From: a virus
Strand: one strand, 5' to 3'
IMG/VR virus record: IMGVR_UViG_3300024252_000004
Coordinates: 280,770-344,769 of that record
DNA length: 64,000 nt
Shown piece after piece: positions 5,814 to 44,846 of this stretch. The notes under the pieces are model-generated. The model had not been told where the DNA came from and searched no databases. It saw only the letters and a list, made by a program, of their open reading frames with translations. The stretch's first letter is position 1. Every line of letters begins with the position of its first letter. The position numbers and the translations under genes are program-made.

Positions 5814-6689
5814 ATGAAACCAGTAGTTCTTTTTGATATGGATGGCACATTAACTGAGCCAAGAAAAACAGTAGAAGCTCCGATGCTTCGGGCGTTAGAG
5901 ACGCTGATGCAATACGCTGTAGTAGGCATTGTATCCGGCAGTGATTACGATTACATCTATCAACAGATGGAACTTGATAAAAATGATTTAAAAGATGTTT
6001 TGATTTATCCTTGCAATGGGACAAAGAGATATGTCTATGATCAAGTTAAGAAACGTTGGGAAAATACGTTTTCTGTCGATATGAAAGAGGAGATCGGGGG
6101 CGAGAAGCTTTATAGTTTAATGGAGCTACTTTTAGATTGGCAGCTATTCTATCTTGAATCTGCAAAGAAAAATGGTTTCAAGACGCCCCTTACGGGTTTG
6201 CACTTACAGAACAGAGGCTCCATGATTAACTGGTGCCCAATTGGACGAGGCGCAGATCACGACGAAAGGAAATTGTTTCAGGACTATGATGCAAATACTT
6301 CTTGGCGAGAAGAGACCCTTCCCTTGTTGGAAGATGAAATCGGACTAAGAGTAGAAGGAGTAACAGTTGTCAAAGGCGGATCAACATCATTCGACATCTA
6401 CCCAGACGGATGGGATAAAAGATTTGTCAAAAGATTCCACGAAGGACAAGAACTCTATTTCGTTGGAGATCGATGCGAAAAAGGTGGGAACGATTACGAG
6501 CTTTACGCCGATCTTAAAAGATCCAAAGAAAGTCGCACCTTTGAGCGCAAACAGCTATTCTTTCCCTGGTCTAAAGTCAATCAAGATGAGTGCAAATATC
6601 AAGATTCTTTTAACACCGGATCTCCGGAAGAAACAAGCAGGATCATTGAAGAGGATCTCATCCCGCGTATCGTTAAGGCGCGAGTTTGA
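5814..6689 (+). CDS. phosphomannomutase, eukaryotic-type (HAD-IIB, PMM family)
   Basis: SD GAGGTG then ATG 5814; VLFDMDGTLT motif I, SFDIYPDGWDKRF and GGNDYEL match PMM family; C-terminal ~40 aa extension. Confidence 0.75.
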   Translation: MKPVVLFDMDGTLTEPRKTVEAPMLRALETLMQYAVVGIVSGSDYDYIYQQMELDKNDLKDVLIYPCNGTKRYVYDQVKKRWENTFSVDMKEEIGGEKLYSLMELLLDWQLFYLESAKKNGFKTPLTGLHLQNRGSMINWCPIGRGADHDERKLFQDYDANTSWREETLPLLEDEIGLRVEGVTVVKGGSTSFDIYPDGWDKRFVKRFHEGQELYFVGDRCEKGGNDYELYADLKRSKESRTFERKQLFFPWSKVNQDECKYQDSFNTGSPEETSRIIEEDLIPRIVKARV

Positions 6690-7457: not shown

Positions 7458-8146
7458 AATGAATTCGATCATATTGGAAATTAAAGCTGCCGAAGGCGGC
7501 ACAGATGCAAAGCTCCTTGTTGATGAACAGTTGGCCATTTATAGGAGATACTGTTCTCGGAGGTCTCTTTGAGTTAGCTCTCTTAGATTCCAGAAGCGGT
7601 TTTATCAGATGCAGAGTCAGCGGCAAAAACGTCAAAAAACATTTTAGGCATGAGCCTGGAGGCCACAGATGGCAAAGGGTTCCTCCGACAGAGAGACGAG
7701 GAAGGGTTCATACTTCTACGATCACTGTCGCTGTCCTACCGGAAGTAACTGAATCTGAAGTTAAGATTAGCGAAAAAGATTTAGAATGGAAAGCCTTTAG
7801 GGGTTCTGGTCCCGGCGGTCAGCATAGAAACAAAACTGATTCTGCTGTGTCGCTTCACCATAAGCCTACTGGAATCAAGATCCGTTCTGAATCTCAAAAG
7901 AGTCAGAAGCAGAATAAGGACACCGCTCTTGCAATATTGAGAGCGAGGTTGCATTCTGAGCAGAGAGAGTCTCAGTCTTTGCGACGCAGTAATATGAGGA
8001 AGAGCCAAGTGGGCTCAGGTATGCGCGCCGACAAAATCAGGACGATCAGGTTGCAGGACGGACAAGTTACGGATCACAACACTGGAAAAAGAATCTCTGC
8101 GAAAAAATATTTGCGCGGAGACTTGGAAGGTCTATTTGAAAAGTAA
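7458..8146 (+). CDS. class I peptide chain release factor, RF1-like (PxT = PPT), lacking domain 1; needs +1 frameshift at 7570 and has an additional +1 frame break at 7499/7501
   Basis: SD GGAGG + ATG 7458; MNSIILEIKAAEGG (frame 0) / TDAKLLVDEQLAIYRRYCSRRSL (frame +1, stops at UGA 7570) / ELALLDSRSGF..GGHRWQRVPPTERRGRVHTS..SGPGGQHRNKTDSA..DKIRTIRLQDGQVTDH (frame +2) align contiguously to RF1. Confidence 0.75.
7559..7573 (+). other. prfB-type programmed +1 ribosomal frameshift site
   Basis: GGAGG-UCU-CUU-UGA-G: SD-like element 3 nt upstream of CUU UGA, same architecture and spacing as E. coli prfB AGGGGG-UAU-CUU-UGA-C. Confidence 0.7.
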
Positions 8147-8524: not shown

Positions 8525-8617
8525 TGCGGGGTCGACTAGTCTGGCCCATGTCACCAGTCTCATAAGCTGGCTCTGAGTATACCTCAATCGTTGGTTCAAA
8601 TCCAACCCCCGCACCCA
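8525..8617 (+). tRNA. tRNA-like, anticodon CAT on class-II scaffold (19-nt variable arm), CCA encoded
   Basis: acceptor TGCGGGG/CCCCGCA perfect, D stem GAC/GTC, anticodon stem CCAGT/GCTGG loop CTCATAA, variable arm hairpin TGAG-TATAC-CTCA, T arm identical to tRNA 2556. Confidence 0.5.
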
Positions 8618-8980: not shown

Positions 8981-9253
8981 ATGAAGTTAGAAAAGACTCA
9001 ATTGAAAGCAGGATGGACTGTGGCTCTTAGGCCGGAAGATCCTACGAGATTCCGACTTATCAACCCTGATGGGTTTGGAGTAGCCTTAATTGGCCTCAAA
9101 GGCGAATGGTGGGGCACAAGCTATAATCTGTGGGATTCCCAAGGTGAAGAACATGGATATGAGGCGATAGACCCACCTGACATGCTGAGTGCGGTCAGAA
9201 ATTGTGCAGCACACTGTGGTGCTTTAAAATATGCGAAATGTGAGGAGTTGTAA
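8981..9253 (+). CDS. hypothetical protein
   Basis: ATG 8981 after tRNA end; ORF open from 8948. Confidence 0.4.
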   Translation: MKLEKTQLKAGWTVALRPEDPTRFRLINPDGFGVALIGLKGEWWGTSYNLWDSQGEEHGYEAIDPPDMLSAVRNCAAHCGALKYAKCEEL

Positions 9254-13130: not shown

Positions 13131-13664
13131 TCAATTCCGATCTGTTCCACCACTGAATCGTCCATCACCTGATAGGAAGTGATCAACTTCGTGACAGGTC
13201 GGACAAACAATCTCTAAGTTCTCAATCGAGTTATTCTCTCTATTGCGATCTTTATGATGAACTTGTAGAACTTCAGGATGCTTATCGTATCCGCAATGAG
13301 AGCATATCTGTTCAAGATGCTCTTTTGCAGTTTTGCGATAATCCTTTCGGTTATCAGTATAGTGCGGCGGATGAATTTCTTTTATCCCTCCTATCCTTTG
13401 TGCAATATCTTTGCAATTTCTTGAGCAAAAAACAAATCCGCTTTTAGATGCAGCAATCTTAGAGGCAGACCTGTAAAAGTCTTTATCACAAATAGCACAA
13501 ACACAATTTGGCTTTTGTATCTTCGGATTTTTCTTTCTCCATTCAAAAGAGCATTTGCGATTGCAAAATTTTGCGTTTCCTCTGTTTAATTCTTTAATTT
13601 CTGCATCAAATTGCGTATAACAATTTAAGCAACTTTTCTTAATGGTTCTACCTTTGTAAGACAT
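13131..13664 (-). CDS. HNH homing endonuclease
   Basis: HHKDRNRENNSIENLEIVCPTCH HNH motif plus multiple CxxC pairs; sits between tRNA-Tyr and tRNA-Cys. Confidence 0.75.
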   Translation of the reverse strand: MSYKGRTIKKSCLNCYTQFDAEIKELNRGNAKFCNRKCSFEWRKKNPKIQKPNCVCAICDKDFYRSASKIAASKSGFVFCSRNCKDIAQRIGGIKEIHPPHYTDNRKDYRKTAKEHLEQICSHCGYDKHPEVLQVHHKDRNRENNSIENLEIVCPTCHEVDHFLSGDGRFSGGTDRN

Positions 13665-13821: not shown

Positions 13822-13843
13822 CTCCCTTAGCTCAGTTGGTTAA
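13822..13843 (+). pseudogene. tRNA 5' remnant (acceptor + D arm start CTCCCTTAGCTCAGTTGGTTAA) truncated by HNH gene
   Basis: canonical tRNA 5' end with no matching D-stem 3' strand, anticodon or T arm; overlaps the stop of minus-strand HNH 13840-14325. Confidence 0.45.
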
Positions 13844-14325
13844 TTCCATTTTGGTTTTAACTTATAGTGTTCTTCTCTGTGGCAGTTTGCACACAGCATG
13901 ACGCATTTGTCAAGTTCAGCTTTAATGGTATCCCAGGCATAAGTATTCCCAGAGCCAATGCCGAAATCTTTCTCGTTTGGTTCTAAATGGTGAAAATCAA
14001 ATGCATCAATACATTTGTCATATCCACAATACTCGCACTTTTCTCCTTTATATTCTACGGCTTTAATCTTACACTGCCATCTTCTTTTTTGCACATAGTA
14101 CTTGTTCTTACACTTTTTTGAGCAAAATTTTCCTGAAGATGGCAAGTCACACAAATGCCATGTGCATTCCAAAGCTTTTGACTTTTCTTTATTTTTTGGA
14201 GAAGTTGATAGTCCAAATTTCTTAAGCCAATGACGAACATTTGTTTGCGAGCAAGATAGCTCTTTTGCGATTTCTCTGGTAGAATAATTATTATCAACTA
14301 ATAACTTTAAAGTTTCTAATTCCAT
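13840..14325 (-). CDS. HNH endonuclease with N-terminal HTH
   Basis: FDFHHLEPNEKD...LCANCHREEH HNH motif; N-terminal STREIAKELSCSQTNVRHWLKKFG helix-turn-helix. Confidence 0.75.
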   Translation of the reverse strand: MELETLKLLVDNNYSTREIAKELSCSQTNVRHWLKKFGLSTSPKNKEKSKALECTWHLCDLPSSGKFCSKKCKNKYYVQKRRWQCKIKAVEYKGEKCEYCGYDKCIDAFDFHHLEPNEKDFGIGSGNTYAWDTIKAELDKCVMLCANCHREEHYKLKPKWN

Positions 14326-14365: not shown

Positions 14366-14452
14366 GCTACTGTGGCCGAGCGGTTGAAGGCAGCAGGCTG
14401 TTAACCTGCCTGGGAAACCACATCATAGGTTCAAATCCTATCGGTAGCGCCA
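14366..14452 (+). tRNA. tRNA with tRNA-Ser body (D arm TGGCCGAGCGGTTGAAGGC, long variable arm, G73) but anticodon GTT
   Basis: acceptor GCTACTG/CGGTAGC, anticodon stem GCAGG/CCTGC loop CTGTTAA (one change from Ser GCT loop CTGCTAA), CCA encoded. Confidence 0.5.
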
Positions 14453-14728: not shown

Positions 14729-14978
14729 GGGTCGAGATAACGCGGTCAAGTAGAGTTCCCAAAGGGCTGTTTATGATACGGTCACAATCGAACGACCTAG
14801 AGTTATACCTGATTTGAATTCGGGCAATGGGCTGGCCAATAGTCCTTAGACGTAATCCTGTTGAAGTCGTCGCAGGTCCCACTTGAGGGTTGTTTTGGAC
14901 ATGGGTGCTTAGTGTCAACGGCAAGCACGATTGGCTGTTAACCAATTAGTTTGGGTTCAAATCCCAAAGTACCCGCCA
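14721..14978 (+). ncRNA. ORF-free structured RNA with tRNA-like 3' end (unknown class)
   Basis: no ORF of 60 aa or more; 3' TTGGG-TTCAAAT-CCCAA + AGTACCC-G-CCA; 5' GCGGGTA can pair with TACCCGC. Confidence 0.3.
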
Positions 14979-15288: not shown

Positions 15289-15704
15289 AAAGAGTTTATG
15301 TTGATATGGACGGAGTCCTTTGTGATTACGTTGCAAAATTTACAGAACTCCGTAACGAAGGAAACAAGTTTCCTCAGCAAAGCTTTGACTTCTTCAGAAG
15401 TATGAAGCCTATGCCATCGGCTCTTGCAGCTATGGGAATACTATCTAAACATTTCGATGTTTGGATTTTGACTAAGCCTTCCTACAAAAACCCTATGTCT
15501 TATACAGAAAAGAGACTTTGGGTTGAGGACCATCTTGGTCTGGATTGGTGTAAGAAGCTGATCCTTTGTCCTGATAAGGGATTGGTTATAGGAGATTATC
15601 TTATTGATGATTTCTTGTGGCCTGAATTTCAAGGTGAACAAGTTCATTTTGGTTCAAATAGATTTCCAAATTGGAGATCGGTAATAGATTATATGCGCCC
15701 GTGA
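15246..15704 (+). CDS. HAD-superfamily 5'(3')-deoxyribonucleotidase-like phosphatase
   Basis: VYVDMDGVLCD motif I (DxDxV); start may be TTG 15284 rather than ATG 15246. Confidence 0.55.
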   Translation: MGMATRSCSGRNKLKRVYVDMDGVLCDYVAKFTELRNEGNKFPQQSFDFFRSMKPMPSALAAMGILSKHFDVWILTKPSYKNPMSYTEKRLWVEDHLGLDWCKKLILCPDKGLVIGDYLIDDFLWPEFQGEQVHFGSNRFPNWRSVIDYMRP

Positions 15705-15785
15705 GCCGAGTGGTTGATGGCCCCAGACTCTTAATCTGGTACAGGTAGTGCTGCAACGTAGGTTCGAATCCTACCGGGCGTACCA
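15695..15785 (+). tRNA. class-II scaffold tRNA with anticodon CTT (Lys codon AAG), A73, CCA encoded
   Basis: acceptor GCGCCCG/CGGGCGT, D arm GCC-GAGTGGTTGAT-GGC, anticodon stem CCAGA/TCTGG loop CTCTTAA, 18-nt variable arm, T-loop TTCGAAT. Confidence 0.5.
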
Positions 15786-21690: not shown

Positions 21691-21768
21691 GGGGAATTAG
21701 CTCAATTGGCCAGAGCGGCAGATTCTAGACCTGCGACAGTGTGGGTTCGAGCCCCACATTCCCTACCA
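21691..21768 (+). tRNA. candidate amber-suppressor tRNA, anticodon CTA, tRNA-Trp-like body
   Basis: acceptor GGGGAAT/ATTCCCT, D arm GCTC-AATTGGCCA-GAGC, anticodon loop TTCTAGA on stem GCAGA/CCTGC (A-C mismatch at 31-39), 6-nt variable, T arm GTGGG-TTCGAGC-CCCAC, CCA encoded. Confidence 0.5.
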
Positions 21769-23238: not shown

Positions 23239-23756
23239 TGAAATACAAAGTAAAGAAAGGTGCGATGAACTCGGGCGGCATTAGTAAACTCATAGAGTTT
23301 GCAGAAACTCTGAACTATACGCCGTGTTCAACTTGGCTCGGATATTACAAAGAAAAGGTATTCTACCTTGGCGATATGAGCAAAGAAGATGTTCCGAAAA
23401 TTCTGCACAGTCTTGCTCCTGCGATCCTCGGAAAGCTATCGGCTCTTGGAGAGCTAAGCGAAGACAATCTTTTTAATCAAATCGTGATTAAGAAGTATGC
23501 CGAAGGAGACGAAGGCAAGCCGCATTTTGATCCAAGAGATATTAAGGGGAAGGTCGTTGCAATTCACTTTGGTGACTTTGAGCTTAGTACGGTAAGGTTT
23601 GATGGCGAAGAAGTAATGGTTGACTCTGGGGATGTCATCATCCGACAGGCAACATCGGGTTACACGATGGGGCCAAAGTACAACGTAAGTGCAGTTGAGG
23701 GCGGCACAAAATATGTCCTCGAATTCCAAACAATCACTAAGGAGAAACCCTCTTGA
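23238..23756 (+). CDS. hypothetical protein
   Basis: 172-aa ORF from GTG overlapping previous stop. Confidence 0.45.
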   Translation: MKYKVKKGAMNSGGISKLIEFAETLNYTPCSTWLGYYKEKVFYLGDMSKEDVPKILHSLAPAILGKLSALGELSEDNLFNQIVIKKYAEGDEGKPHFDPRDIKGKVVAIHFGDFELSTVRFDGEEVMVDSGDVIIRQATSGYTMGPKYNVSAVEGGTKYVLEFQTITKEKPS

Positions 23757-24238
23757 AAACAAGAGTAAATTCTGATATCATAGCAAGAAGAGTTCTTCTC
23801 ATTGGAGGAGACGGTTCCAAGGTTGGCATTTTTCAGACAAGAGATGCCATAAGTAAAGCACAGGAGGCAGGTCTTGACCTGTTGCAGGTCAGCGCAGATC
23901 AGGAAGTTCCCGTGTGTAAGATTGTCGATTATGGCAAGATGCTTTATCTTCTAAAGAAGGGCAAGAAGGCTAAGGGATCAAGGGTTGTTGTGAAGGAAGT
24001 GAAGTTCGGACCTAACACTGGTGATGCTGATATTCAGGTCAGAGTTAAGGCTGCGAACAAATTCCTCTCCAAGGGTAACCACGTCAAGTTTACCGTCAGG
24101 GTGAAGGGTCGTGCAAACGCTCACAGAGACCTTGTCATCGATAAGCTTGCAGAAGTTCTTGAGAAGGTAGAGGGGAAAGTAGAGAAGGCTCCATCCTTCT
24201 CAGGCAACATATGCTCGGCGCTTGTCGTGCCGGAGTAA
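23753..24238 (+). CDS. infC: translation initiation factor IF-3 homolog, UUG start
   Basis: SD AAGGAGA then TTG 23753, no in-frame ATG before conserved NTD; LIGGDGSKVGIF..EAGLDLLQVSADQEVPVCKIVDYGK and KEVKFGPNTGDADIQVRVKAANKFL..RVKGRANAH match IF3 N and C domains. Confidence 0.8.
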   Translation: MKTRVNSDIIARRVLLIGGDGSKVGIFQTRDAISKAQEAGLDLLQVSADQEVPVCKIVDYGKMLYLLKKGKKAKGSRVVVKEVKFGPNTGDADIQVRVKAANKFLSKGNHVKFTVRVKGRANAHRDLVIDKLAEVLEKVEGKVEKAPSFSGNICSALVVPE

Positions 24239-39858: not shown

Positions 39859-40554
39859 ATGGATTCCGCGAAATATCCCAGGTCGCTGCATTGGCCGAGT
39901 TCCCCAGGAACTACCTCAGATGACCGTTTCATTACACAGGCACAAGCGCTCGCATTTCTAAATGTCGAGACTGTGCTTACCGAAAAGCTTGACGGTGGAA
40001 ATACTACCATAACGAGAGATGCCTTTTTTGCAAGGTCTCATGGTGGAGAACCAGCTCACCCGTCATTCAATCTTCTACGCACCCTTCATAAGAATTATCT
40101 ATGTAGGGCCATTGATAAAAATATATCAGTATTTGCTGAGTGGTGCTTCGCAGTACACTCAATTAGGTACTCGATGCTTCAAGATTATCTCAACATTATC
40201 GCCGTCAGGAATGATGAAACCGGCGAATGGTGGGATTGGGACGAAGTATGTTTGATGGCTGATCACCTCGGCTTCCCCACTGTACCAGTTCTACTCCGTG
40301 GAACGTTTACAGACATAGGCGCCTTGGAAAAAACTATGACCACGTTCTCTGGCTTGTCGTCTTTGTACGGCCCAACAAGAGAAGGTGTAGTTCTAAGAAA
40401 AGTCAAGGGTGTTGCTGAGATCAAAGACGAGCGTGGTCTTTGCTTAGATGGTCTTGCTAAGTGGGTAAGAGAAGATCATGTTCAAACGGACGAACATTGG
40501 AGCAAGAAGAAAGTTGAAATTCAGCCAACCATATCGGCACTGAGTTTTATGTAA
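39859..40554 (+). CDS. ATP-dependent RNA ligase (RNA_ligase/DRB0094-like family)
   Basis: KYPRSLHWPSSPG..DD N-terminal signature and nucleotidyltransferase motif I TEKLDGGN (KxDG). Confidence 0.6.
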   Translation: MDSAKYPRSLHWPSSPGTTSDDRFITQAQALAFLNVETVLTEKLDGGNTTITRDAFFARSHGGEPAHPSFNLLRTLHKNYLCRAIDKNISVFAEWCFAVHSIRYSMLQDYLNIIAVRNDETGEWWDWDEVCLMADHLGFPTVPVLLRGTFTDIGALEKTMTTFSGLSSLYGPTREGVVLRKVKGVAEIKDERGLCLDGLAKWVREDHVQTDEHWSKKKVEIQPTISALSFM

Positions 40555-41561: not shown

Positions 41562-41989
41562 ATAGAATATACAAATACGCCGAACTTCCTCCAGAAAAAG
41601 GAGTAGTTAAGTTCGGCTGGGGAGCTACAGAGGAAATGCCAGAGACAGATTACGTCTTAGGCTATCATTCCCGTTCTAAGTTCGCCACAGAGGAAGAGGT
41701 CAGTCTTTCTCGCAAAGAAGGGACTAATGCAGCCTCCGTGGCTGATTACACAAAGTTTCTGCAAAGCCTTACAGGAAGTACTCCAGAAGCATTCTATGAG
41801 AAATGGGATGGAAAAGAGGATGAGCTTAAGGCTTTTTGGTCAGCAAATTTCAGCAATGCCGATCCCAAACAATATCTATTTGTTTGGAAGCTATCAAGAC
41901 TGTTAGTCACTGGCAAGAAATTCGTAATGTATAGTAGGGGATTTAGGCTGGTGAAAAATGAGACAGGAGACACGCCGACAGAGGTATAA
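41552..41989 (+). CDS. hypothetical protein
   Basis: 145-aa ORF (GTG start). Confidence 0.4.
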   Translation: MEVDRIYKYAELPPEKGVVKFGWGATEEMPETDYVLGYHSRSKFATEEEVSLSRKEGTNAASVADYTKFLQSLTGSTPEAFYEKWDGKEDELKAFWSANFSNADPKQYLFVWKLSRLLVTGKKFVMYSRGFRLVKNETGDTPTEV

Positions 41990-42476
41990 TGGGAAAAAGA
42001 ATGATGCAATTTCTTTACCGCTTAGCATTGTCACGGTCAACTTTGATTTTGATGACAATCTTGCTTTCACAATCAGAACCGCTGCTTGCTATGGTGTGGG
42101 CACTATTTATGTAATAGGCTCCGTACCGGACAGAAGTTTTTTGAACTCTCGCTCCGGCAGTCTGTATGACTACGTTGACATCTACTCTTTCTCTCAGCCG
42201 AGAGACTTTACAGAGTTTGCAAAGAAGAACGGGTATAATATAGTGTCGGCCGAGCTTTCGGATGATTCTGTAAGCCTGTTCGATTACAAATTCGACATGG
42301 ACACGCATACGTGTCTGGTGTTAGGCCATGAAACAACTGGCGTACCCATCGAATGTACCTTGAATGGAGATAATGTTTTCATACCAATGCTCGGAGTAGG
42401 GTTTTGTTTGAATACGTCCCAGACAGGAACAGCAATCATGACAGAGTATGTTCGTCAGTATTTGGAGAGAAAATGA
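41958..42476 (+). CDS. SpoU/TrmH-family RNA 2'-O-methyltransferase (SPOUT)
   Basis: CLVLGHETTGVP..FIPMLG..LNTSQTGTAIM matches SpoU motifs 2 and 3. Confidence 0.6.
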   Translation: MRQETRRQRYNGKKNDAISLPLSIVTVNFDFDDNLAFTIRTAACYGVGTIYVIGSVPDRSFLNSRSGSLYDYVDIYSFSQPRDFTEFAKKNGYNIVSAELSDDSVSLFDYKFDMDTHTCLVLGHETTGVPIECTLNGDNVFIPMLGVGFCLNTSQTGTAIMTEYVRQYLERK

Positions 42477-44443: not shown

Positions 44444-44846
44444 GGGGGCGTTTTGGATTCGACCGGGTAACAGATAGGAATAGTGCAAGCCGATCAAGGT
44501 AACTCAGATCGTTATAAGCGTTACAAAAAACAAACTAGTTGACGACTATTCATTCGTGTACGCAAACGCAGGCAGAGGCTTCGGCGCTCCTGTAGTAGCA
44601 TACGCCTAATTCCGATTTAGGCATGTGGACTCTGTGTTCCATATATCCAAACACAGATAAGTGGTTGAACGCACTGACATAAACATTGTTCAAAAATGGA
44701 GTAGCCCGAAAGGGAGGAGGCGTCTATCATTTGGCGTCAGGGGATAAAATGAATACTTTGCCTATTTAGAGAAATGGGATAAGCTTGTGAACGACTTGAA
44801 ATTGACGTTATGCGACACGAGGGTTCGACTCCCTCCGCCTCCACCA
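44444..44846 (+). ncRNA. ssrA: tmRNA (SsrA), standard one-piece
   Basis: 5' GGGGGCGTTTTGGATTCGACCGGG and 3' GAGGGTTCGACTCCCTCCGCCTCCACCA match tmRNA termini; acceptor GGGGGCG/CGCCTCC with G3-U70 and A73; tag frame GCA AAC GCA GGC AGA GGC TTC GGC GCT CCT GTA GTA GCA TAC GCC TAA (ANAGRGFGAPVVAYA). Confidence 0.85.

Follow-up and report, generated by a model that had tools for sequence, protein, structure and literature searches.

The transfer RNA (tRNA) gene at positions 14366-14452 of a viral DNA stretch of 64,000 nucleotides (nt), taken from IMG/VR record IMGVR_UViG_3300024252_000004 (positions 280,770 to 344,769) and called the window here, poses a clean question, namely whether the anticodon or the body of a tRNA decides its charge, and poses it also for homologues in cultured phages of E. 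coli, Klebsiella, Enterobacter and Cronobacter. The anticodon is GUU, which reads the asparagine (Asn) codons AAC and AAU (AAY; Y, pyrimidine), and the variable arm is long. As a standard rule, a long variable arm in bacteria occurs only in tRNA-Leu, tRNA-Ser, tRNA-Tyr and tRNA-Sec, where it is a recognition handle for the synthetase. An earlier note on this DNA had described the gene as a tRNA-Ser scaffold with an Asn anticodon and had proposed that seryl-tRNA synthetase (SerRS) might use it to insert serine at AAY codons. The data indicate that 14366-14452 is a genuine phage tRNA gene reading Asn codons, with a long variable arm. Our preferred explanation, to which we assign a probability of about 0.62, is a class-II-shaped tRNA-Asn of phage-specific architecture that would be charged by asparaginyl-tRNA synthetase (AsnRS); we infer both the charging enzyme and the selective advantage from the sequence.

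ARAGORN called an 87-nt tRNA with the anticodon gtt at gene position 35, spanning exactly 14366-14452 on the + strand, and Rfam RF00005 (tRNA) matched the same span with 59.4 bits (E = 2.6e-10; gathering score, 29). Together with a cloverleaf parse, these calls defined a class-II-shaped tRNA with anticodon GUU, G73 and an encoded CCA, and all of its parts lie on the + strand. The acceptor stem GCUACUG/CGGUAGC (14366-14372 and 14442-14448) has 7 base pairs (bp), one of which is U-G, and is separated from the D arm by U8 and G9. The D arm GCCG-AGCGGTTGA-AGGC (14375-14391; in RNA form, the loop is AGCGGUUGA) has three Watson-Crick pairs plus G13.A22, includes C11-G24, and carries two extra residues (20a/20b) in its 9-nt loop; it is of the class-II type that is common to phage tRNA-Ser and tRNA-Tyr. 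The anticodon stem-loop GCAGG-CUGUUAA-CCUGC (14393-14409, anticodon at 14400-14402) has A37 and G30-C40. The variable region CTGGGAAACCACATC (14410-14424, 15 nt), which like all variable arms in this study was folded in isolation, parsed as C-UGG-GAAA-CCA-CAUC, that is, 1 nt, a 3-bp stem (TGG/CCA), a GAAA tetraloop of the GNRA type and 4 unpaired 3' nt. The T arm AUAGG-UUCAAAU-CCUAU (14425-14441) was placed by parse and alignment, and the discriminator G73 (14449) is followed by the genomically encoded CCA (14450-14452). The features relevant to translation were intact, including the 7/5 acceptor/T branch, G18G19, the T loop, U33, A37 and the CCA. The GTT anticodon, D arm, long variable arm and G73 that the earlier note had listed were thus all present in the sequence. 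The minimum free energy fold of the isolated 87-nt sequence gave no cloverleaf (z = -1.3), as is common for unmodified tRNA sequences, and was not used. A scan for promoters and terminators around the gene yielded nothing above shuffled expectation.

GUU is one substitution away from both GCU and GUA, and a rival reading is that a tRNA-Ser(GCU) or tRNA-Tyr(GUA) gene was misread by sequencing, or recently inactivated by mutation, at the anticodon. Two independent assemblies, JGI 3300024258 and ENA ERZ27245991, had identical sequence over the gene and over 600 nt around it. When the anticodon stem of the window tRNA was fixed and the anticodon was left as NNN, the long-arm genes recovered carried GTT only, and the two other matches were unrelated short-loop tRNAs. 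The roughly 40 diverged relatives described below also all carry GTT, and their stems show compensatory changes. GTT is thus the true base, an assembly error or a recent point mutation in the anticodon was ruled out, and we give an artefact or pseudogene next to no chance. The single change between GUU and GCU that had been pointed out before is real, but it does not reflect recent derivation from a Ser gene: the lineage of this tRNA is deeply diverged and covaries. GUU is equally one step from Tyr GUA.

That lineage was found in cultured as well as uncultured phages. Searching a phage collection by blastn yielded 85-nt matches in Escherichia phages 4MG and LNA4, Klebsiella phage VIK251, Enterobacter phage EC152 and Cronobacter phage GAP31. 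These homologues measured 85-89 nt, and four of the five are labelled tRNA-Asn in GenBank, while the LNA4 record has no annotation. Four of these five enterobacterial phages are Seunavirus, as was confirmed for 4MG and GAP31; the BLAST matches to the tRNA-Asn genes of 4MG and GAP31 spanned 95% of the query, both genes are 89 nt long with G73 and the same anticodon stem-loop as the window tRNA, and the difference between their variable arms is compensatory (UGGA/UCCA versus GGGA/UCCC). In the 8-kb tRNA clusters of these two phages, the long-arm gene is the only Asn tRNA and stands beside three genuine Ser tRNAs. Two pattern scans of IMG/VR, one fixing the anticodon stem-loop and the other the D arm and anticodon loop, brought the family to about 40 distinct sequences, located in phage tRNA arrays on contigs of up to 435 kb. 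In an alignment of 29 sequences, 99.7% of the cells in the four standard helices were paired, 18 of 20 pairs showed changes on both sides, and no shuffle and no slid register came near the observed pairing. The window tRNA aligned with its 28 relatives without gaps except in the variable arm, and shared with the lineage the class-II D arm, the CUGUUAA loop, the variable hairpin, G73 and the place in a phage tRNA array. A megablast search with 24 kb of the window gave no match in the phage collection. We found no description of a long-arm tRNA-Asn in phages in the literature, the cultured homologues being merely labelled as above.

Among 185,579 species genomes, the pattern of D arm plus GTT occurred at 10 places, three of which were clear genes on contigs of metagenome-assembled genomes. 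All three have other tRNA genes as neighbours (within 8 kb, two of the contigs hold 11 and 17 tRNAs; the third holds 3), and the remaining places were mostly truncated tRNA-Ser fragments or else could not be called. Because only three clear genes were found in this set, and mostly truncated tRNA-Ser otherwise, the lineage is essentially viral; a cellular origin was rejected on the same counts. The bacterial pattern matches (L121:5794-5824 and 5991-6021; L117; L118) were mostly truncated 5' halves of tRNA-Ser(GCU) ending inside the anticodon loop, and L121 has two such halves in tandem; rather than tRNA genes, they resemble remnants of the attachment sites of integrated elements.

The type of body was assessed with masked-anticodon profiles. 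The first profiles, built from the heterogeneous phage tRNAs of the collected loci and with a Tyr set that lacked the relevant D-arm type, scored the window tRNA at 27.8 bits for Ser, 19.1 for Lys, 14.1 for Leu, 12.2 for canonical Asn and 9.0 for Tyr, and Ser was the best profile for 36 of 37 family members. This assignment to a Ser body was superseded once Ser and Tyr references matched for the D arm were used. The D arm TGGCCGAG.GG...AAGGC occurred, among the matches listed, with the anticodons TGA (59), GCT (17), GCA (8), GTA (7), ACT (3), GTT (3) and CGA (1), and a search restricted to GTA found it in at least 120 phage loci. The D arm is not Ser-specific, because many phage tRNA-Tyr carry the same one. 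The matched references comprised 67 tRNA-Ser and 57 tRNA-Tyr sharing this D arm and were scored with both anticodon and discriminator masked; they assigned 61 of 61 held-out sequences correctly. Held-out true Ser tRNAs scored 62.7 bits on the Ser profile and 41.0 on the Tyr profile, and true Tyr tRNAs scored 40.1 and 70.1, respectively. The long-arm Asn family averaged 46.8 bits (Ser) and 44.0 (Tyr), and the window tRNA scored 41.5 and 44.0, both at the level of non-members. With the acceptor stem and variable arm left out, the Tyr profile exceeded the Ser profile in 18 of 23 family members.

The anticodon stem of the window tRNA, GCAGG/CCUGC, is one pair away from the commonest stem of phage tRNA-Tyr, GCAGA/UCUGC (24/57). 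In the matched tRNA-Ser, the variable arm had 5-7 bp in 62 of 67 and a single unpaired 3' nt in 65 of 67, versus 3 bp and 4 nt in the window tRNA; in the matched tRNA-Tyr with foldable arms, 3 bp (37/43) and 3 unpaired 3' nt (38/43) prevailed. By this comparison, the geometry of the window arm matches Tyr and not Ser. As judged from the profiles and arms, the long-arm Asn body appears to form a separate class-II lineage that is equally distant from Ser and Tyr. Of the tRNA-Ser scaffold first proposed, the class-II long-arm body with an Asn anticodon and G73 was upheld and the Ser-specific nature was not, the D arm being shared with Tyr and the variable arm being Tyr-like.

The identity nucleotides were then compared with the bacterial determinants listed by Giegé and Eriani (2023; PMC9976931, Table 1). 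These are G73, G34, U35, U36 and A37 for AsnRS; G73, C72, G2-C71, R4-Y69 (R, purine), C11-G24, a large variable region and G30-C40 for SerRS; and A73, G34 and U35 for tyrosyl-tRNA synthetase (TyrRS). The same source states that the Asn set alone turns a tRNA-Lys body into an Asn acceptor, that SerRS disregards the anticodon, and that C2-G71 and G73 are antideterminants against E. coli SerRS and TyrRS, respectively (PMC9976931, Table 3). All five AsnRS determinants were present in the window tRNA. From the SerRS set, it lacks a large variable region of Ser geometry and has C2:G71 instead of G2-C71, a pair found in 66 of the 67 D-arm-matched phage tRNA-Ser. From the TyrRS set, it has G34 and U35, and G73 replaces the A73 that was seen in 57 of 57 D-arm-matched tRNA-Tyr. 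G73 was present in 38 of 39 members of the long-arm family and in 62 of 64 canonical phage tRNA-Asn, and both G73 and G30-C40 were common to the phage tRNA-Asn examined. The class-I architecture with a variable loop of 4-5 nt is absent from the window tRNA; this is an architectural norm and not a listed identity determinant.

Compared position by position with co-resident phage tRNA-Ser, the long-arm Asn family has lost Ser-conserved positions at exactly 2:71, 3:70 and 4:69. Pair 2:71 was G:C in 23 of 24 Ser and in 5 of 34 long-arm Asn tRNAs; pair 3:70 was A:U in 17 of 24 Ser and mostly U:A in the long-arm family (U3:A70 in the window tRNA); and pair 4:69 was R:Y in 22 of 24 Ser and Y:R in 30 of 34 long-arm Asn tRNAs. 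Two of these pairs, G2-C71 and R4-Y69, are listed bacterial SerRS determinants. G2:C71 together with a Ser-like variable arm was found in 1 of 38 long-arm Asn versus 34 of 42 true Ser tRNAs, and these identity and arm counts include related sequences that are not phylogenetically independent, as well as some variable arms that fold two ways. The view that the D arm, long arm and G73 make up the SerRS identity set was therefore not confirmed, as the D arm is not Ser-specific, the arm does not have Ser geometry, C2:G71 stands in place of G2-C71, and G73 is equally an AsnRS determinant.

Under our preferred explanation, a class-II-shaped tRNA-Asn, the lineage would most likely have originated by an anticodon shift in a class-II tRNA, either from Tyr GUA to GUU with A73 changed to G73, or from Ser GCU to GUU, and selection would since have retained it in the tRNA arrays of phages. 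AsnRS, most probably that of the host, would read G34-U35-U36-A37 and G73 and load asparagine, while TyrRS would be excluded by G73 and SerRS would be disfavoured by C2:G71 and by a variable arm that is short, oriented differently and Tyr-like in its geometry. The arm may have been kept since the class-II core depends on it, or since it is useful. The phage could thereby sustain AAY decoding during infection alongside the canonical tRNA-Asn, and the unusual shape might have the further advantage of being a poor substrate for host tRNA-cleaving defences.

Several observations weigh against this explanation. To our knowledge, there is no precedent for AsnRS or any other class IIb enzyme accepting a tRNA with a long variable arm, and no precedent for a class IIb enzyme with a long-arm tRNA was found in the literature. 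The invariance of the anticodon stem-loop, or of the D arm and loop, among the IMG/VR relatives is by design of the scans that fixed these parts. The window tRNA keeps five of the seven SerRS determinants (G73, C72, A4:U69, C11:G24 and G30:C40), and about one-third of the family has a Ser-like arm, with a variable stem of 4-7 bp and a single unpaired 3' nt. In addition, the long-arm Lys lineage described below often retains G2:C71 and has U73, which phage tRNA-Ser also shows.

These retained determinants, and the Ser-like arm geometry of some family members, would be expected if SerRS charged the tRNA wholly or partly with serine by way of the class-II core, G73, C11-G24 and the arm, so that AAY would be ambiguous between Asn and Ser during infection. 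The indifference of SerRS to the anticodon (PMC9976931) and the first profile test, in which Ser stood out with heterogeneous references (27.8 bits versus 9-19), agree with such a charge, and allo-tRNAs with G73 and long arms do insert serine in E. coli (PMC5389517). The antideterminant C2:G71 at a position where G2-C71 is near-universal, the 3-bp arm with its 4-nt tail, and the fall of the Ser score to the level of non-members with matched references (41.5 versus 62.7 bits for true Ser) speak against it, as do the loss of precisely the acceptor-stem Ser positions across the family and the service of the long-arm gene as sole Asn tRNA in the Seunavirus clusters. Lengthening of the variable stem, natively 3 bp, was reportedly needed before E. 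coli tRNA-Tyr became serylated. The codons of the phage GroEL gene bear on the same point: of the 5 columns in which Asn is shared by the four homologues compared, 4 use AAC, and AAY was used at 0 of 4 invariant-Ser columns (a small sample), a pattern that, read at the codon level, excludes reassignment of AAY and is compatible with low-level ambiguity. We consider a serine or dual identity improbable but not negligible, and the insertion of serine at AAY codons by the window tRNA, as had been proposed, unlikely on this evidence.

A phage-encoded synthetase or cofactor might charge or protect the tRNA and use the variable arm as a private recognition element, in parallel to a pairing of the phage lysyl-tRNA synthetase (LysRS) with a long-arm tRNA-Lys(CUU). 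A bona fide LysRS is indeed encoded about 7 kb upstream of the window, the long-arm tRNA-Lys(CUU) lies 1.3 kb from the Asn gene, and a variable-arm motif of stem-GAAA-stem-CANC is conserved over the long-arm Asn, Lys and Cys tRNAs. Against such a private pair, no AsnRS or SerRS gene call was obtained between a point some 9 kb upstream of the window and one some 9.5 kb past its end (window coordinates, about -9 kb to +73.5 kb), the phage LysRS, used as a tblastn query, matched no further class IIb synthetase in 1.25 Mb of collected loci, and Seunavirus genomes of 140-150 kb carry the tRNA with no synthetase in their tRNA-cluster regions; we regard it as very unlikely. We hold equally slim the chance of a non-decoding role, in which the tRNA would be a decoy for, or an inhibitor of, a host nuclease directed at tRNAs or another defence protein that binds them, or would serve as a tRNA-like regulator of some other kind. 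The PARIS nuclease AriB does target host tRNA-Asn(GUU), and competition may be how overexpressed phage tRNAs act (PMC12409363); some irregular tRNAs receive an amino acid yet stay unused in translation (PMC5389517), and nematode nev-tRNAs are conserved without detectable mistranslation (PMC4300185). The window tRNA, however, has all of its translation-relevant features conserved, with compensatory changes in every stem, and occupies the Asn slot of otherwise ordinary tRNA sets. A broader proposal, which we also think unlikely although less so than these two, is that a long arm on normally short-armed isotypes is a deliberate phage device, either a nuclease shield or a handle for phage factors such as LysRS, with residual Ser identity and ambiguous AAY perhaps in some members. 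Should any form of this proposal be true, class IIb synthetases would naturally charge class-II-shaped tRNAs, and phages would run a structurally distinct tRNA subset.

The Asn gene is one of four long-arm tRNAs in the window with anticodons that do not belong to class II. The others, all on the + strand, are a tRNA-Ile(GAU) at 2556-2646 with A73 and an ordinary class-I D arm, a 93-nt tRNA(CAU) of the Met or Ile2 type at 8525-8617, and the tRNA-Lys(CUU) at 15695-15785, which has a related class-II D arm and A73 and represents a parallel phage lineage. U1-A72 and C73, as parsed in the tRNA(CAU), are unusual for Met. Only a few genes separate the long-arm Ile(GAU) gene, and likewise the CAU gene, from a tRNA of normal length with the same anticodon, and the Lys(CUU) gene is equally near a normal-length Lys(UUU).

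Long-arm Asn (39) and Lys (15) tRNAs were searched for directly, and other long-arm isotypes (variable region of at least 11 nt) were by-catch of the collected loci: Thr 10, Ile 8, Cys 3 and Gly 3, as well as Arg, Glu, Met, Asp, His and Pro. Their discriminators were G in 38/39 Asn, U in 3/3 Cys and 3/3 Gly, and A in 8/8 Ile and 2/2 Arg, with one each of His C, Asp G and Pro A, and U or A in Thr. In all isotypes except Lys, where U73 was enriched (7/15), the discriminator was the one typical for canonical tRNAs of the same anticodon. If the long-arm tRNAs were all serine-identity scaffolds, G73 would be expected throughout; the discriminator instead follows the anticodon. The stem-GAAA-stem-CANC motif was common to the long-arm Asn, Lys and Cys tRNAs, and the Lys and Cys tRNAs also have the class-II D arm. 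Many long-arm Cys, Gly, Thr, Ile(UAU), Arg, Glu, His and Pro variants were seen to carry a short stem with a GAAA loop (loci such as L223, L156, L136, L196, L174 and L248). The reverse anomaly was also encountered, with tRNA-Leu of 74-78 nt lacking a long arm (anticodons UAA, UAG, GAG and CAA; 4MG, GAP31 and L086), and phage tRNAs thus lose the arm as well as gain it. The Seunavirus tRNA-Lys(UUU) genes (4MG, L001:3740-3823; GAP31, L002:3741-3827) have an oversized D loop, GCC-AAGCGGCGACGTATGTCTAA-GGC, and no long variable arm; they are annotated, yet were not called by ARAGORN.

The Asn gene belongs to an array of 31 tRNAs and a transfer-messenger RNA (tmRNA), all on the + strand of the window. 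It is flanked by open reading frames (ORFs) resembling HNH endonucleases and by the canonical short-variable-loop tRNA-Asn(GUU), the adjacent isoacceptor at 14903-14978 (+; ARAGORN and Rfam). Just upstream, between tRNA genes, two cysteine-rich ORFs lie on the - strand (13131-13664, with a weak Pfam match to HNH_3, and 13840-14325); both resemble homing endonucleases, which fits putative mobile-element traffic in the array. The LysRS gene encodes a class II enzyme of 477 aa at positions 465-1898 of contig L130 (L130 position = window position + 8951), which places it about 7.05-8.5 kb upstream of window position 1. It matched the NCBIfam models NF001756 with 538.5 bits (cutoff, 468) and TIGR00499 with 494.6 bits (cutoff, 427.6), and its contig is the same phage, with 99.99% identity over 11.4 kb. 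Pfam matches identified further genes related to translation and RNA, namely a GatB-like YqeY (1695-2129), ribosomal protein L7/L12 (3649-4020), initiation factor IF3 (23753-24238), an RNA ligase of PF09414 with a possible function in tRNA repair (39859-40554) and a SpoU-family methyltransferase (41958-42476). The tmRNA (44444-44846, +) scored 81.2 bits with Rfam and has the tag peptide DDYSFVYANAGRGFGAPVVAYA. A CUA, amber-reading suppressor tRNA that ARAGORN labels 'Pyl' lies at 21691-21768 (+), and a release factor RF1-like ORF of 213 aa at 7505-8146 keeps the GGQ and PPT motifs and is without the N-terminal domain; the two together raise the possibility of TAG recoding or of interference with termination. 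A variant contig, L131 (ENA ERZ27250140, k141_216392), was 99.76% identical to the window over 2.5 kb and carries, beyond position 9052, large genes with FlgD_ig and Por_Secre_tail (type IX secretion) domains. It may be a chimeric assembly, or it hints at a Bacteroidota host.

A conserved viral long-arm lineage with the complete Asn set would be a natural exception to the long-arm rule, and the Lys, Cys, Thr, Ile and Gly parallels would broaden that exception. In annotation, flags for a mismatch between isotype and anticodon will fire on such genes, and in engineering, long-arm scaffolds could serve the building of orthogonal tRNAs. The cleavage of tRNA-Asn, tRNA-Lys and tRNA-Thr by PARIS AriB would tie the lineage to the arms race over tRNA-centred phage defence.

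With the canonical tRNA-Asn(GUU), the window tRNA shares the CUGUUAA loop, A37, G73 and G30-C40, and thereby the whole listed AsnRS set, whereas the canonical tRNA belongs to class I, its variable loop measuring 4-5 nt and its D stem 4 bp, and the window tRNA reached only 12.2 bits on the canonical phage profile with the anticodon masked. The likeness to tRNA-Tyr(GUA) with the TGGCCGAG.GG...AAGGC D arm extends over the D-arm type, the anticodon stem GCAGR/YCUGC, G34 and U35, anticodons one position apart, and a variable arm of 1 nt, 3 bp, a 4-nt loop and a 3-4-nt tail; Tyr differs in A73 and in A at position 36, where the window tRNA has G73 and U, the acceptor stems are unrelated, and the scores on the Tyr profile are 44 versus 70 bits. 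tRNA-Ser has in common the class-II core, C11-G24, G73, G1-C72 and R4-Y69 and a GCU anticodon one change from GUU, but the window tRNA has C2:G71, U3:A70 and a 3-bp stem with a 4-nt tail where Ser has G2-C71, A3:U70 and 5-7 bp with 1 nt.

Among unusual tRNAs, the nematode nev-tRNAs have class-II bodies of the Leu type with Gly or Ile anticodons and are charged by leucyl-tRNA synthetase in vitro, with no mistranslation detected in vivo (PMC4300185). They likewise form a conserved class-II-shaped family with class-I anticodons and raise the same question of charging by body or by anticodon; they differ in being eukaryotic and in not retaining the determinants of glycyl- or isoleucyl-tRNA synthetase as the window tRNA retains the Asn set. 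The allo-tRNAs of bacteria and phages (Mukai et al., 2017; PMC5389517) combine a long arm and G73 or U73 with many anticodons other than those for serine, and in E. coli some of them insert Ser or Ala; their acceptor/T branch is 8/4 or 9/3, and their D arm is tRNA-Sec-like with a long stem and a tetraloop. The window tRNA resembles them in its long variable arm and in G73, and membership was rejected on its 7/5 branch, in which all pairs covary, and its 9-nt D loop. PARIS AriB cleaves host tRNA-Lys, tRNA-Thr and tRNA-Asn between C and N41 in U36-A-A-U-C-N41, with a modelled contact to the D loop, whereas the tRNA-Lys, tRNA-Thr and tRNA-Asn of phage T5, which are ordinary class-I tRNAs with point changes, escape it (PMC12409363). 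Like these, the window tRNA is a phage Asn(GUU) isoacceptor altered at the AriB site (U36-A-A-C39-C40, not U-A-A-U-C), and its D loop is of a different type; in contrast to them, it is class-II-shaped, and its canonical partner at 14903 also reads UAACC. Escape from tRNA-cleaving defences, in a phage that also has an RNA ligase, might be a possible benefit of this architecture.

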